In this document: positions 54,224-64,000 of the stretch, one piece after another
Numbering within the stretch: position 1 is the first letter of the stretch
How the letters are laid out: each line of letters opens with the position of its first letter
Origin: Shigella phage SGF2
Length of the DNA stretch: 64,000 nt
Reading direction: 5' to 3' (one strand)
Sequence record: MN148435
Made by a program: the position numbers and the translations under genes
Notes under the pieces: model-generated
Seen by the model: the letters and a program-made list of their open reading frames with translations, nothing else
Database searches by the model: none
Told to the model about the DNA's origin: nothing

Positions 54224-54299
54224 TGGTGCACCCTACAGGACTCGAACCTGTAACCAACGACTTAGAAGGTCGCTGCTCTGTCCATTGAGCTAAGGGTGC
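54224..54299 (-). tRNA. tRNA-Arg (anticodon UCU), CCA encoded
   Basis: minus-strand GCACCCTTAGCTCAATGGACAGAGCAGCGACCTTCTAAGTCGTTGGTTACAGGTTCGAGTCCTGTAGGGTGCACCA folds as cloverleaf: 7-bp acceptor, D-arm GCTC/GAGC, anticodon loop CTTCTAA, T-loop TTCGAGT. Confidence 0.85.
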
Positions 54300-58900: not shown

Positions 58901-59344
58901 CTACTTAACCCTTGCCTCTTTGATGGGGTCAATGTATTTTTCAACGCCCCACTTGTGTTTACTATCTGCGTAGAAAACATCAGGTGCACACTGGCTTGTC
59001 TTAGGGAAAGCCTGCGGGTCTTTCGTGCTACCTTTAAACTTCTGTTTACCACGGGTGCGACCATTACAGAGGATTTCTAACTTCTTCTCTTCTTCTGTTT
59101 TAGCTCCCCCGCTCTGTAACAAAGAACGTTTATGATCGGCTAACAATAACGCATCAGCACGATGAACACGATGGCCTACACGTTTTGCCACACTGGAAGG
59201 AATATGGGATTCAGCCTCAGTTTTTGCAGCGCGACGTTTTAAACTGCGCTTGCTGACGTGATTGGTTGCCTTTGGCTTCTCTTTCTCCAGTTCAGAGATA
59301 GAAAAACAACGCCCGCCCTTCATGCTGATTTTAGATTTAGCCAC
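58901..59344 (-). CDS. basic hypothetical protein
   Basis: 147-aa Lys/Arg-rich ORF. Confidence 0.35.
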   Translation of the reverse strand: MAKSKISMKGGRCFSISELEKEKPKATNHVSKRSLKRRAAKTEAESHIPSSVAKRVGHRVHRADALLLADHKRSLLQSGGAKTEEEKKLEILCNGRTRGKQKFKGSTKDPQAFPKTSQCAPDVFYADSKHKWGVEKYIDPIKEARVK

Positions 59345-59413
59345 AATCTTATTCCTTTTAGTGATAAGTTATATCGGGCAAGCCCATCAAGGTGACAGGC
59401 TTGAACAAATAAC

Positions 59414-59623
59414 TTAATCAAGTAAACTAAACGATTTCCAACTGCGTAGCAGGATTGTACCGTCATCCATAGCTACGCATAACTTTAACAGTTTCTTGTT
59501 AGCACTACTCACCGTTGTAATTCGTCCAGTTGTACATTTACCTTTATTGCTGTAAAGATATACAACACGACGGCCTAACAAGCGGGAAGGTGCTTTCTTA
59601 AATTCTGAAATGTTAGTGATCAT
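59414..59623 (-). CDS. hypothetical protein
   Basis: 69 aa; ATGA-type coupling with upstream gene. Confidence 0.3.
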   Translation of the reverse strand: MITNISEFKKAPSRLLGRRVVYLYSNKGKCTTGRITTVSSANKKLLKLCVAMDDGTILLRSWKSFSLLD

Positions 59624-59844
59624 AATGCTTGATACCTTTGAATGTGTTCAATACGGGTGGATTGAGCAAATGACGCTTTAACAGCCATTTTCCTAACTTC
59701 TTCTTTACGCTGGTTAGTGTGTACAGTATCCCAATGTTTGTTATCACGTTGGCGCTGTAATATCTTACTACATTTGCGATGGTTTCCCGTGCTGCGATGT
59801 TTCTCACAAATAGGACACTTGCCAAAATTACTACTGAATATCAT
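59620..59844 (-). CDS. small basic zinc-binding protein
   Basis: GKCPICEKH...HRKC; preferred over overlapping alternative frame by coupling to neighbours. Confidence 0.3.
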   Translation of the reverse strand: MIFSSNFGKCPICEKHRSTGNHRKCSKILQRQRDNKHWDTVHTNQRKEEVRKMAVKASFAQSTRIEHIQRYQAL

Positions 59845-60068
59845 TTTCTCAATCCCAGCTTTCTTAAGATACGGCCTAACGTTGTTTCTTGCGTGATAAT
59901 ATAGCTGATTGCTTCACGTTCCAATGTTTCAATCTTCATTGGTGACGGATACCATTCACCGGTAATAACACATTTACATTCAACGCCATACTTTTTAGAT
60001 AGGCGGTAATGTTGACCGTTGACAAGATTCCTATAAATAGTGGTATGCGTAATTAACATGATCATCAC
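59841..60068 (-). CDS. hypothetical protein
   Basis: 75-aa ORF. Confidence 0.3.
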   Translation of the reverse strand: MMIMLITHTTIYRNLVNGQHYRLSKKYGVECKCVITGEWYPSPMKIETLEREAISYIITQETTLGRILRKLGLRK

Positions 60069-60111
60069 CTTTGATTAAATTCTTTGATTAATGCACTGAA
60101 TCAATGCACTG

Positions 60112-60148
60112 ATAAAAGAAAAGGCGCTACCCGTTAAGATAGCGCCTT
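60112..60148 (-). terminator. rho-independent terminator (minus strand)
   Basis: minus-strand AGGCGCTA-loop-TAGCGCCTT then TTCTTTTATC, after stop of 60171-61079. Confidence 0.45.
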
Positions 60149-60170
60149 ATGTTTATTCAAATTGTCTTAC

Positions 60171-61079
60171 TTATGCCGCCTGACGTGCCGCCATAATTTC
60201 AGCCGCTTTACGCAATACTTCTTCCTCTTCTGCTTTCGCCGCTTGTTCGGTACGGGTAGCAACCGTTGAAGAGATACGACCGCGCAGACTTTCTAACTTC
60301 TCCTGCATAGCTGCAACAGTCTTTTCCATTTCATCAGCGTATGAATCGAGTGATTCTAATTCCTTGCTTGATGCGTTCATCAGATAATCATCCGAGATCG
60401 CTACCGTCGAGGCCGTGATTTTCTTGATGAGTGAATCAAAGGACTTTTTAACCTTCCCAACTTCTTCACTCAGGGCGATAGTGTTATCGCTGGTTGCGCC
60501 GTTGCGCTCATCAGCCAGTAATTTGGCTTCAATACGGATTGCATTCAAGCGTTCAACCAAAGCGTAAATATCCTGATTAAAATCTTCCTTGTTTTTCGCC
60601 GGAATTTGCAGGTGTGCCGCCACGTTGTCATTGCAACCTTTGTAGAAGTTAGGATTATCCACTTCAATTGCACGACCTAATGCAAAGTTTTCGAAAGCGT
60701 TTGACCAGCGAGCGCGGTTTTGTTCCATTTTGGCCTTAATTTGCGCTTCTTTCGCATCTTCTTTAGCTTTCGCCTCACCTTCCAGATTAATCCACTTTTT
60801 ACGACCATTTGCCGCATCGGTGTTAAACTTGATAGGAGTTAAGAAAGTAATCGCGGTGGCAATAACATCCATATCGCGGAAACGTTCGGTTAACAGGAAG
60901 TCAACCGCCGCCTGCAATACGTCCAGCTTTTTACCGTTACTGCGGAAGTGCTGTAAGTGCCCTAACAGGAAGTTAGAAACATCTTGTTTGATCGCCGCGT
61001 TATTGCTACGAATGTTGTTAGCCAGTGCGTTAAAACCAGATTCGTTAACCAGAGTAAAAACTTTAGCCATGATATTCAC
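60171..61079 (-). CDS. hypothetical helical protein (first gene downstream of large non-coding region)
   Basis: 302-aa ORF; coiled-coil-rich C-terminal half. Confidence 0.4.
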   Translation of the reverse strand: MNIMAKVFTLVNESGFNALANNIRSNNAAIKQDVSNFLLGHLQHFRSNGKKLDVLQAAVDFLLTERFRDMDVIATAITFLTPIKFNTDAANGRKKWINLEGEAKAKEDAKEAQIKAKMEQNRARWSNAFENFALGRAIEVDNPNFYKGCNDNVAAHLQIPAKNKEDFNQDIYALVERLNAIRIEAKLLADERNGATSDNTIALSEEVGKVKKSFDSLIKKITASTVAISDDYLMNASSKELESLDSYADEMEKTVAAMQEKLESLRGRISSTVATRTEQAAKAEEEEVLRKAAEIMAARQAA

Positions 61080-62858
61080 CTTTCAATTGTAAGGGCACTA
61101 TGCCCCGCTCTCTATGAGCTTGTTTAAGTCACTATTAACTTATCTCTAACCACTCACTTTTTTAAGTAGTTACAGGTAAGCGAGGCGGTCTTATCAGGAG
61201 TTAACCTTGCCGCCTCCTTATCCGTGATGTTTCATCTGGTATCTTTAATTAGTCGCTATAAACGAAGCCGACCTGATAGCGATGATCAATCATCACAATA
61301 AGGCAGTGCGTCCGACTCTAATTAGTTACGTTTATTGTAACCGTCGGCAATATCGTCTACTTTGCTTTCGCTCTCGCCTATCCTTTTGTATCAACTCTCA
61401 ATCACTAGCCATCGCCCACAACGGGATGCTATTGTGAAAGAGTCATTGACCGTCTAATGTTCTGACGTTTTATATCTTTCGGCAAGTTTACTACATAAAC
61501 CGACTATGTACTTTCATCTTGTGATGAATCTCAAGCCGTTCACATCGTAAACGTTCACACTAAACCTTATTGTTAAATAGCAATTTGCCACTTTTTAACC
61601 GCTCCCCGCCGCCCTCAATTGGGCGTTAATTTGTCGGACTTGCCTACCCTGATTAACTTCTTTCACTGTAGCACCATGTTAGCGATGACCGCCGCTACCC
61701 TTAACCGTGGGCGATTAGCTTAAGTCTTTGCGTGTACTCAATGAATCCGTCTATCAGTGGTGACGTTTCCAGTAAGGGAATGTAAGGCTGTTTTCTCTGA
61801 TAGTTTAGAGAGTCTTACACCGTTTTATCTGGTATGCTTTCCGATGGTTATTATCATCAAGCATATTCAACCGATATAGGAGAACGTTTAAATTATTAAA
61901 GAGCGGTAAATCTATCAGTGTACTTTCTCACACTATGCAACTGTTAGCCGTTGTTACGCTTTTCACTGAAGCGATGATTTGCTTAGTGAGTGCTCATTAT
62001 GAATCATGTTGTTTTCGCTGTCAACCGCTTTTTAATCTTTTTCGTCGTTCCCGCTATTGGGAGGATATATCAATCAGCTTTATTTGATTGAAGATTAAGC
62101 GGTGAGGCTTAACTTATGACTCATATTGTTAAAGAGCGTTTAGCCTTTTAAAGTGTCTGCTAATCACTGTCACATTGAAGGCTTACTGATTCATTAACAG
62201 GACGCCTAACCCTGAACTACTCGCCGCACTATGTGCCACCTTTCCCGCGATACGTTGACTTGGGAACTAGTTAACGTTGTTTTGTTAACTTGTGGTTAGT
62301 ATGGACTACCTTAACCACGTTTGCAACTCTTTTTTATCATCTTCTTTTAATTCCTTTCCCTTATCTCGCTTGAATCTTTGCGAAAGGGCAAGATGATAAG
62401 TTTTTAAAGAGCGGAGATATTTTAAGTCATCGCTGACTATGCTCACTATATATCAGGCTTTTTCTGGTGTCAATACTCTTTTTAAGTATTTTCACTTTCT
62501 AGCCTGATTTTTAAAGAGCGGGGCAAGTTTCCTTGCCTTGTATGTTTTTCATCGTACCCGATGAATTGAAGTATACGCCAACCAATGTGTAATGCAATAG
62601 GGTAAAGCAAATTATTTTAAACTTTTTCATAGTGGGATAGGTAAAAGAACGCGCACGCGTGATACATCATAGAAAATAGCTTGTAAAGCATTATTTAACG
62701 GCCTGTAACGCATCACAACGAGCTAAAGGAGGGTAAGGAATACAATCACCTTAGAAATGAGAAAAGCCTCACTAGGAGGCTTACAGGAAGGATTTAAAGC
62801 AACAGATACAGTAGGACCATAGGCATGACTACGGCACAATATAGGAGAAAGATTAAGC
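61080..62858. promoter_or_regulatory. 1.8-kb ORF-free repeat-bearing region (candidate early promoter cluster / origin / terminal region)
   Basis: no ORF of 60 aa or more in six frames; four copies of TTAAAGAGCG at 61896, 62129, 62404, 62511; duplicated TTT(C/T)ATCTGGTAT(C/G)CTTT at ~61226 and ~61820; CACTATA-like elements. Confidence 0.4.
62753..62782 (-). terminator. rho-independent terminator (minus strand)
   Basis: minus-strand AAGCCTCC-TAGT-GAGGCTT then TTTCTCATTTC, after 62859-63230. Confidence 0.45.
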
Positions 62859-63230
62859 CTATGGATTTACACATTGACCTAAACCGGATTCTACTTCATT
62901 CATAGACTCGTCAAAGAGCGTCAACGACGAGCGCATCAAGTGATCGACCGTGATTTGTTTACCAGTGGTTTCATTCACTAGCTGAATAGTTTTATCGTAT
63001 GATTGTACATGATCGAAATCATTTACATGTAAAATAATAACTTTAGGTGACTTTTTACCAGTTTCATAGTTTTCTATCAAATAGGTGCACTGTAAACCGT
63101 CAACCGTAGCAGGGGAGAACGTTGCAGCCTTTACACTACCCATAGCCGATAGCAGGACACCTAACAGGAGAACAACCAGAAAGAAGCCTACAACCGTTTT
63201 AACGACGAATTTAATAAACCACATAGCCAA
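62859..63230 (-). CDS. membrane-anchored protein
   Basis: N-terminal TMD FVVKTVVGFFLVVLLLGVLLSAMG. Confidence 0.35.
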   Translation of the reverse strand: MAMWFIKFVVKTVVGFFLVVLLLGVLLSAMGSVKAATFSPATVDGLQCTYLIENYETGKKSPKVIILHVNDFDHVQSYDKTIQLVNETTGKQITVDHLMRSSLTLFDESMNEVESGLGQCVNP

Positions 63231-63414
63231 TCAACCTTTAATAATGAGATTAATAACATCGAGAGCGGCAACAATCAGTAAATAATTTAAAGAAATGAAG
63301 CCCGCGACAAACAAAAACAAAAACAGCACATCCAGACCTTAGAAAACGTAAGAATACAGCATATCAGTAATGAACAGCAGGAAGGTCGCACCAAACAAGC
63401 AACGCCAAAAATAA

Positions 63415-63696
63415 TCATTCTTCTTCATTGCTACCCTCGCCAAAAAATGCTACGCTAATCTGTTCCACTTCTTCCAGCGACAGGAGAATCCCGCGTTGGG
63501 CTAAATACTTCCCAACAGTTAGATAATCTTGCACTAAACAGACAATAGGAAAGCGTATATTTTGAATCTCACCTTTGGAAAGAAAAGACAAATATCCAAC
63601 GTCGATTGATTCATCAAAGGACAATGTAACGCCACCGTAATTATGCGTATCAATTAACGCAATAGTTTCATTTCCCATAACGTTTCCAATCCTCAT
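63415..63696 (-). CDS. hypothetical protein
   Basis: 93-aa ORF; exact start uncertain. Confidence 0.3.
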   Translation of the reverse strand: MRIGNVMGNETIALIDTHNYGGVTLSFDESIDVGYLSFLSKGEIQNIRFPIVCLVQDYLTVGKYLAQRGILLSLEEVEQISVAFFGEGSNEEE

Positions 63697-63898
63697 AATG
63701 ATTAACTAGTGCCTGATAATCATCAGATGATAACTCACCGCCTAAATAGGCAACGGTTATGCGTGCTTTGTATTCTGACAAACTGCATAGCGCGGGAGCG
63801 GGTAACCTGCTTTCGCCATAACATCCTAGCACTTCAACGATACAACCGTTTAAAGATACTGATTTATTAATCACGATACGGTTAGCCATTAATATCAT
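63668..63898 (-). CDS. hypothetical protein
   Basis: 76-aa ORF with CxxC pairs. Confidence 0.3.
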   Translation of the reverse strand: MILMANRIVINKSVSLNGCIVEVLGCYGESRLPAPALCSLSEYKARITVAYLGGELSSDDYQALVNHYEDWKRYGK

Positions 63899-64000
63899 CC
63901 TTAATCAGTCCATGATTGAGCAGGTTAGCCAGTGACAAGTCACCGTCAATATAGATTGATTTGAAATCTTCACGGGTAATTTCGAAATCAGCAAAGGCTA
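63882..64000 (-). CDS. hypothetical protein, 3' end only (continues beyond window)
   Basis: open frame from window edge ending ...GLIKDDING at TAA 63882-63884. Confidence 0.25.
   Translation of the reverse strand, partial: AFADFEITREDFKSIYIDGDLSLANLLNHGLIKDDING

Follow-up and report, generated by a model that had tools for sequence, protein, structure and literature searches.

A predicted boxA array and a large covarying RNA in the early spacer of Shigella phage SGF2

The early spacer, its boxA repeats and its promoters

Within a stretch of 64,000 nucleotides (nt) from Shigella phage SGF2 (sequence record MN148435; the whole stretch is referred to as the window), we analysed a gap of about 1.8 kb at 61080–62858 that holds four copies of a short repeat and, in its left part, a conserved sequence predicted to fold as a large RNA. 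The phage is a phiEco32-like Kuravirus and the gap is the known early spacer between gp125 and gp124, which in phiEco32 itself measures 1.9 kb (phi32_125/phi32_124). All flanking genes lie on the minus strand and belong to the early, leftward class that is read by host sigma70 polymerase. The spacer matches 95–96 Escherichia and Shigella phage records of the phiEco32 group at 75–96% identity, all of them Gordonclarkvirinae (Kuravirus, Suseptimavirus and Nieuwekanaalvirus); it is syntenic across these independent records, nearly all of which carry no annotation there. The original prediction, made from the window alone, had described the gap as free of open reading frames (ORFs) and bounded by terminators, and both descriptions hold. 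No ORF of at least 60 amino acids (aa) lies inside 61093–62858, the longest internal one having 51 aa, and a plus-strand ORF (60730–61092) merely overlaps the left edge. Hairpin plus T-run sites, both on the minus strand, flank the gap at 62782..62764 and 60148..60121. The first (stem AAGCCTCCTAGTGAGGCTT, then TTCTCATTTC) closes the upstream early operon of gp125–gp128 homologues and is annotated at the equivalent position in the 4E8 and SU7 records; the second, found by the hairpin and T-run scan, lies 3' of the gp124 homologue (299 aa, 60171..61070, minus strand).

The repeated decamer TTAAAGAGCG has exact plus-strand copies at 61896, 62129, 62404 and 62511, as originally noted, and no other exact copy in the 64 kb. 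When up to one mismatch is allowed there are 10 matches against 4.6 expected, a number reached by none of 100 shuffles. Since the flanking genes are on the minus strand, the decamer is to be read on that strand, where it becomes CGCTCTTTAA. All four copies fit exactly the sequence GYTCTTTAANA, the boxA consensus derived for gamma-proteobacteria (Baniulyte 2017; PMC5725501). This consensus occurs four times in the window, always on the minus strand and within 626 nt (expected 0.6; no shuffle reaches four).

For comparison, 21 related loci were fetched, giving a set of 22 phages with the window. Each of the 21 relatives has three to six exact boxA copies in its spacer, all in the sense of the early genes and none antisense, so that the set holds 91 sites (four in the window, 87 in relatives); where flanks were scanned, no sense-strand boxA was found outside the spacer. 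The 91 sites are embedded in 59 distinct 30-nt upstream contexts, which argues that the 11-mer itself is the conserved unit. Nearly all are preceded at 2–15 nt by a hairpin, some with GNRA loops and some with stems that covary between phages. A sigma70 match of at least 10/12 lies within 130 nt upstream of 51% of the sites, compared with 2% in a coding background, and the 11/12 matches stand 25–90 nt upstream of boxA. At the level of sequence, the identity of the repeats as boxA, their strand, enrichment and conservation, and their association with promoter-like sites are thus established. We infer from this arrangement that they lie in the transcribed strand, downstream of promoters and close to the 5' end of the RNA.

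The role first assigned to the repeats, that of promoter elements or sigma-factor binding sites, does not stand: it places them on the wrong strand, and they match boxA RNA signals that follow promoters. A CACT(A/G)T element had also been reported 25–31 nt after every decamer. It is present after all copies but that at 62511, and these three elements differ in nature. The one at 62444–62449 alone forms a promoter −10 hexamer (minus-strand TATAGT); the others fall in a hairpin or a degenerate −35 region.

The suggestion of an early promoter array is borne out by two 11/12 sigma70 matches on the minus strand that are conserved in relatives. According to the SU10 paper, which is also our source for phiEco32, this spacer holds three sigma70 early promoters, with the same arrangement in phiEco32. 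In the direction of the early genes the array starts with a putative weak promoter, P1 (62570..62597, minus strand; TTGCAT-16-TATACT), which has an A/T-rich stretch upstream and, at 8/12, falls under the scan threshold. It is followed by the hairpin GGCAAG-GAAA-CUUGCC (62522..62537, minus strand), with a GNRA loop, which ends 2 nt upstream of boxA-4 (62509..62519, minus strand; GCTCTTTAAAA, decamer copy 62511, an exact GYTCTTTAANA match), in the boxB-then-boxA order of rrn leaders. Relatives carry the variants GGCAA-GAAA-UUGCC and GGCAC-UUA-GUGCC. On the plus strand the same hairpin reads as a terminator-like site (62518–62541; stem, then T-rich tract), which, from its sequence, might block antisense transcription that runs rightward into the cassettes.

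Promoter P2 (62445..62473, minus strand; TTGACA-17-TATAGT, 11/12) is separated from boxA-3 (62402..62412, minus strand; GCTCTTTAAAA, at about +25 from the P2 start site) by the hairpin GUCA-GCGA-UGAC (62426..62437, minus strand), again with a GNRA loop. The P2 cassette recurs in DE5, ECBP2, KBNP1711 and others, and TCAGCGATGA recurs in the P2-type cassette of most relatives. About 220 nt between boxA-3 and boxA-2 (62180–62400, minus strand) hold three more hairpins, e.g. CUUAUCAUCUU...AAGAUGAUAA and GUGGUUAAGG...CUAACCAC, seen in some relatives only. The promoter of boxA-2 (62127..62137, minus strand; GCTCTTTAACA) is degenerate in the window and reads TTGACA-16-TAGAAT in SU7, NC-B, TH34 and EK010. 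The last promoter, P3 (61996..62024, minus strand; TTGACA-17-CATAAT, 11/12), is present in 22 of 22 phages. Downstream of it, the hairpin AGUGU-GAGAAAGU-ACACU (61917..61934, minus strand), whose loop resembles rrn boxB GAGAAAAAGC, precedes boxA-1 (61894..61904, minus strand; GCTCTTTAATA). The stem of this hairpin covaries (AACGUG..CACGUU, GAAGUG..CACUUC and GAGGUG..CACCUC), and boxA-1 in many relatives reads GCTCTTTAACAATTTA, a 16-nt identity to the rrn boxA region of Escherichia coli.

P3 and boxA-1 (61904–61894) are constant in the 22 phages, and the cassettes to their right differ in number and spacing. Among close relatives the right half of the spacer (equivalent to ~61905–62860) varies in cassette number (three to six), type and spacing while the RNA and the last cassette stay constant; the promoter-hairpin-boxA cassettes seem to behave as modules that are gained, lost and reshuffled. 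Promoters for the phage sigma factor (gp36) were also considered; their motif, TAATGTATA (tAATGTAtA), has no match with one mismatch or fewer in 61080–62858.

A conserved three-domain RNA fold

The left ~820 nt of the gap (61904–61080, minus strand), which extend from boxA-1 as far as the gp124 ribosome-binding site, are conserved like coding DNA. Alignment with related phages, which had been proposed as a check on the gap, found it syntenic in the 95–96 records and revealed no conserved ORF: 15 of the 22 phages have no sense-strand ORF of at least 30 aa, and an antisense ORF of 41–55 aa is missing at that position in several of the 22. Identity to the window is 76–97% in this region, against 55–93% at third codon positions of gp124, and Suseptimavirus-like lineages clearly preserve the RNA better than gp124 (in SU7, 91% versus 76%). 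Unpaired columns are as conserved as paired ones (variability 0.082 versus 0.091). By these comparative measures the RNA is under purifying selection and non-coding.

The 22 phages were aligned with MAFFT and folded with RNAalifold. The consensus fold has 225 base pairs in 38 helices, arranged in three domains, and 98.9% of the sequence-by-pair cells are standard pairs. Double (compensatory) changes retain pairing at 78 of the 225 pairs. Column shuffles gave 35 ± 3.4 and none of 500 reached 78; slid partners gave 9–11. Since the structure was derived from the alignment on which it is scored, the neighbouring gp124 coding sequences of these phages were put through the identical pipeline. This control yielded five double-change pairs in the sense and 11 in the antisense direction, with consensus energies of −80 and −75 kcal/mol against −234 for the RNA; the control alignment is the more divergent of the two (mean identity 83% versus 87%). 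The RNA alignment scores less well as its reverse complement (49 pairs, −152), and the pair model contains 556 G·U cells versus 20 A·C, and both observations identify the minus strand as the strand that folds. The single-sequence minimum free energy is −255.6 kcal/mol (z = −7.2). Seven metagenome homologues from outside the model-building set keep 217–224 of the 225 pairs. Among the possibilities first raised for the gap, a non-coding RNA locus thus receives very strong support from covariation, although the RNAalifold model will contain some wrong helices.

In the covariation model, domain I (helices 2–15) spans 61594..61892, domain II (helices 17–29), closed by a 10-bp long-range helix, spans 61295..61573, and domain III (hairpins 30–38) spans 61092..61294, all on the minus strand. 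Between domains I and II lies the invariant hairpin 16 (61575..61593, minus strand), which bears the boxA-like sequence GCTATTTAACA. This element (61582–61572, minus strand) spans hairpin 16 and helix 17, is invariant in 22 of 22 phages and has a mismatch at the critical C4. The C4T/T6C double mutation in boxA, one half of which affects this position, abolished SuhB association at suhB. Because GCTATTTAACA falls in hairpin 16 and helix 17, its conservation may be structural rather than a result of Nus binding. Domains I and II could also be connected by a candidate 9-bp helix between AUCGCCCAC (61715–61707, the 5' arm) and GUGGGCGAU (61419–61411) on the minus strand. The complementarity is perfect and is kept by compensatory changes in NC-B and TH34, and the helix competes with at least two local RNAalifold helices. 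On this evidence it is probably a long-range helix or a pseudoknot.

Two further motifs of the original prediction map to the RNA. The duplicated 17-mer is indeed present twice, 593 nt apart, and corresponds to the invariant motif AUACCAGAUAAAAC (61823..61836 and 61242–61229, minus strand), also written AUACCAGAU(A/G)AAAC, with one copy in domain I and the other in domain III. The inverted repeat near 61250 exists, with 7/8 complementary positions, but covariation backs a different, overlapping helix (61273–61251).

The RNA resembles none of the families or genomes searched. Rfam 15 covariance models (including those for GOLLD, ROOL, OLE, HEARO, 6S, RNase P, transfer-messenger RNA and group I/II introns) gave no match at E ≤ 1 on either strand of 59000–64000. 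No similarity was detected in 5,426 E. coli genomes and 72,556 plasmids, and an RNA-specific 24-mer is absent from 185,579 species genomes. Outside the phage records the locus was recovered only in five IMG/VR contigs and eight metagenome contigs. The short conserved pattern GGTAGCGGCGGNNNNNGCTA was also tried as an IMG/VR probe and discarded as too unspecific, with chance matches only. In Salmonella phage 7-11, a more distant relative, both the boxA array and a gap of this kind are missing. We found no account of boxA or a non-coding RNA in these phages in published full texts, and a large survey of viral structured RNAs contains only motifs of 29–151 nt. As far as sequence comparison reaches, the array of boxA sites and promoters adds a member to a known class of signals, and the RNA is without known relatives.

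The RNA and the gp124 homologue, which always lies directly downstream of it, co-occur in the same 96 phage records. The N-terminal 130 aa of the protein are basic (pI 9.5) and nearly invariant, and the C-terminal part is acidic and helical or coiled-coil. Pfam and PDB searches with it gave no match, a single-sequence AlphaFold model is unusable (pLDDT 50), and a search for distant relatives (phage tblastn, IMG/VR, metagenomes) recovered only the same close family. A weak sigma70-like site (61086–61114, minus strand; TAGAGA-17-TACAAT, 9/12) is located in the 3'-terminal part of the RNA, immediately before the ribosome-binding site of gp124, and the SU7 record annotates a promoter at the equivalent position; judging by its sequence, it could allow expression of gp124 independently of the RNA. 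On the other side of the gap, 62859–63230 (minus strand) encodes a 123-aa early protein labelled 'terminase' in PHROG 13168 and several GenBank records. In view of its location among early host-takeover genes and the lack of Pfam support, the label looks like a propagated annotation error. The sole transfer RNA gene of the window is tRNA-Arg (anticodon TCT, 54224–54299, minus strand), and an ARAGORN scan of the gap for transfer RNA and transfer-messenger RNA genes found none.

A proposed rrn-like early unit and its alternatives

We consider it likely that the gap is an early unit of the rrn type, in which boxA-modified host polymerase makes a long, untranslated, structured RNA and continues into gp124. 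The unit would be leftward, on the minus strand and non-coding, transcribed by host RNA polymerase and built like a ribosomal RNA operon in two parts. The first part (~62600–61894) would be the array of sigma70 cassettes, each followed by a small hairpin and a consensus boxA; every cassette has its own downstream boxA, so every early transcript would bear a boxA near its 5' end. The second part (61904–61080) would be the three-domain RNA of ~820 nt up to the gp124 ribosome-binding site. BoxA RNA is known to bind NusB–NusE and to nucleate a complex with NusA, NusG, SuhB and S4 that blocks Rho-dependent termination of untranslated RNA and promotes folding of ribosomal RNA. By analogy, the phage boxA RNA would bind host NusB–NusE(S10) and, with NusA, NusG, SuhB and S4, form an rrn-type antitermination complex. 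The modified polymerase would then resist Rho across ~0.9–1.4 kb of untranslated, folded RNA before gp124 is reached, and tethering of the 5' end of the RNA to the polymerase may aid folding of the three domains, as proposed for ribosomal RNA. Transcription would proceed into gp124 and possibly into early genes beyond it. From this architecture we infer transcription itself, the binding of Nus factors, resistance to Rho and whatever function the RNA may have.

What the RNA does is a separate matter, on which we are much more tentative. It might represent a new class of large, trans-acting early phage RNA, acting alone or as a ribonucleoprotein (possibly with gp124), made via the host ribosomal RNA machinery through boxA and serving host takeover or counter-defence. 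The BASEL study found these phages unusually resistant to the defence systems tested.

Several points weigh against the proposal of an rrn-like unit. Antitermination of the rrn type is weak on intrinsic terminators, which makes read-through of the terminator at 60148–60121 uncertain. The RNA is rich in G relative to C over most of its length, so Rho loading may be poor even without boxA. About a third of the boxA sites have no good promoter match of their own, and no GU-rich boxC was seen 3' of the boxA sites. The family is narrow (~96 close phages, 75–97% identity) and many of the compensatory changes will therefore have been inherited rather than independent; the gp124 and slid-partner controls address shared descent but give no per-pair statistics. 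Finally, published transcript, 5'-end or Nus-binding data for the spacer were not found in a search that did not cover the primary phiEco32 papers.

The most serious alternative, which we still regard as unlikely, is that the ~820-nt RNA is merely a very long cis-acting 5' leader that governs translation or stability of gp124 and has no separate function. The RNA always stands directly upstream of gp124, the same 96 records carry both, and the terminator scan detected no intrinsic terminator between them. Moreover, the gp124 Shine-Dalgarno sequence GGUG (61077..61080, minus strand) can pair with 4–7 nt just 5' of boxA-1 (UACC, 61908–61905), and boxA-dependent occlusion of a Shine-Dalgarno sequence has been described at suhB (Baniulyte 2017; PMC5725501). 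The possible pairing is weak, however, shows no covariation and is absent from the centroid fold. Conservation of the RNA exceeds that of gp124 in several lineages, as the SU7 values above illustrate, and 38 helices in three domains, with unpaired columns as conserved as paired ones, go far beyond any known bacterial leader. Given its size, domain architecture and conserved single-stranded stretches, we judge a trans-acting RNA or ribonucleoprotein to be likelier than a pure leader.

An improbable reading of the repeats is that the boxA copies serve mainly as a sponge, such that early transcripts titrate NusB, NusE and SuhB off the rrn operons and so aid the shutdown of host ribosome synthesis. 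Three to six consensus boxA copies per genome behind strong promoters, and flanks of boxA-1 that in many relatives are identical to rrn boxA over 16 nt, would fit such a role. Their multiplicity is more simply explained by one downstream boxA per promoter cassette, the copy number ranges from three to six with no sign of selection for more, and a sponge leaves the structured RNA unexplained.

Fainter still is the prospect that the region is the phage origin and its structured transcript serves as a pre-primer for replication, with an R-loop as in ColE1 RNA II, the ori regions of T4 or the primary origin of T7. Strong early promoters do feed a long, structured, untranslated RNA, which contains a conserved G-rich tract (GGCGGCGGGGAG, at ~61612–61598), but this tract is paired within the covariation-supported helix 2. 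Transcription would continue into a protein gene, and phages of this family have a primase/helicase and a DNA polymerase of their own, for which the 7-11 record names phiEco32 homologues. A replication origin, one of the possibilities first raised, also finds no backing in the composition of the gap: there is no AT-rich block, GC-skew switch or iteron, the GC content (0.36–0.44) is like that of the flanks, and boxA is the sole multi-copy repeat.

The idea that the gap reflects the decay of coding sequence, an artefact of assembly or a genome-end junction, with repeats arising by chance, can be dismissed, as nothing except the absence of ORFs speaks for it, whereas the gap is syntenic in 95–96 independent records, is more conserved than neighbouring synonymous sites, holds no conserved ORF and has a motif enrichment above every shuffle. 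The junction of genome termini, also suggested at the outset, lies elsewhere: direct terminal repeats of these phages have been described (PMC9965538), and in related records (4E8) a direct terminal repeat of ~193 bp lies ~2 kb further right, with no match in the window. The original prediction is thus partly supported, right in two of its four options (promoter array and non-coding RNA locus) and wrong on the strand and role of the repeats.

Large structured RNAs without known function are rare, and this one sits in a well-studied, culturable family of E. coli phages. Family isolates Bas86–94 of the BASEL collection grow on K-12, so that our proposal is directly testable in a tractable phage. 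If it is true, this would be the first virulent phage in which several boxA signals of the rrn type serve the synthesis of a long untranslated RNA, and Nus-factor biology would extend beyond ribosomal RNA, suhB, CRISPR arrays and lambdoid phages. The boxA array also suggests how phiEco32-like early transcription copes with Rho; for phage 7-11, a relative without the array, the antitermination strategy "remains to be defined" according to the 7-11 paper. As a practical consequence, ~96 records that leave the 1.8 kb blank or hold spurious small ORFs there can be corrected.

Comparison with known systems

In size and style the RNA resembles GOLLD, ROOL, OLE and HEARO, RNAs of phages and bacteria that are several hundred nt long and likewise have many covarying helices and conserved unpaired stretches. 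It differs from them in having no Rfam match, in its narrow distribution (E. coli Gordonclarkvirinae only), in not being located beside tRNAs and in its putative control by boxA.

Lambda-type nut sites share the boxA core CGCTCTT(T)A. In the phage spacer the hairpins stand 5' of boxA, not 3' as in nut sites, and boxA has the full consensus as in rrn, which works without N. A nut site of the lambda type was considered and rejected, as no GAAAA-type or GNRA-like pentaloop boxB was seen 3' of any of the four boxA copies; an N homologue was not searched for.

In CRISPR arrays, boxA protects long untranslated transcripts from Rho (2020; PMC7665894). The phage unit is similar in that boxA precedes a transcript of exceptional length which is not translated and would otherwise be open to attack by Rho, but here the downstream RNA is phage-encoded and predicted to be a single folded molecule, not a repeat-spacer array.

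In the early region of T7 (PMC11863960) a boxA-like element (CGCTCTTTAACAA; in its printed context GACGCTCTTTAACAATCTGG) stands after promoters A1–A3 and before gene 0.3, so that a virulent coliphage already provides an example of boxA behind tandem early promoters. Both phages combine tandem host-type early promoters near a genome end with a consensus boxA in an untranslated leader. In T7 there is a single boxA, and the short leader contains an RNase III site, whereas here there are four boxA copies and an 820-nt covarying RNA; the two regions share no sequence similarity.

The closest parallel is the rrn leader of E. coli, found upstream of 16S rRNA in all 5,426 genomes at a median of seven places per genome. 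The phage unit lacks a GU-rich boxC, and its RNA is unlike ribosomal RNA or any E. coli sequence and is followed by a protein gene. It has three to six boxA cassettes, where rrn has one boxA per operon leader and one in the spacer, and Nus binding is known for rrn, whereas the phage sites are predicted from their sequence. In the rrn leader the order is promoter, boxB hairpin and then ACU-GCUCUUUAACAAUUUAUCAG; in rrnG a boxB hairpin is followed by GCTCTTTAACAATTTA, the form that boxA-1 takes in many relatives, and the layout is the same as in the phage spacer. Tandem strong sigma70 promoters, a hairpin immediately 5' of a consensus boxA and, after it, a large, multi-domain, untranslated structured RNA are features that the rrn leader and the phage spacer have in common.

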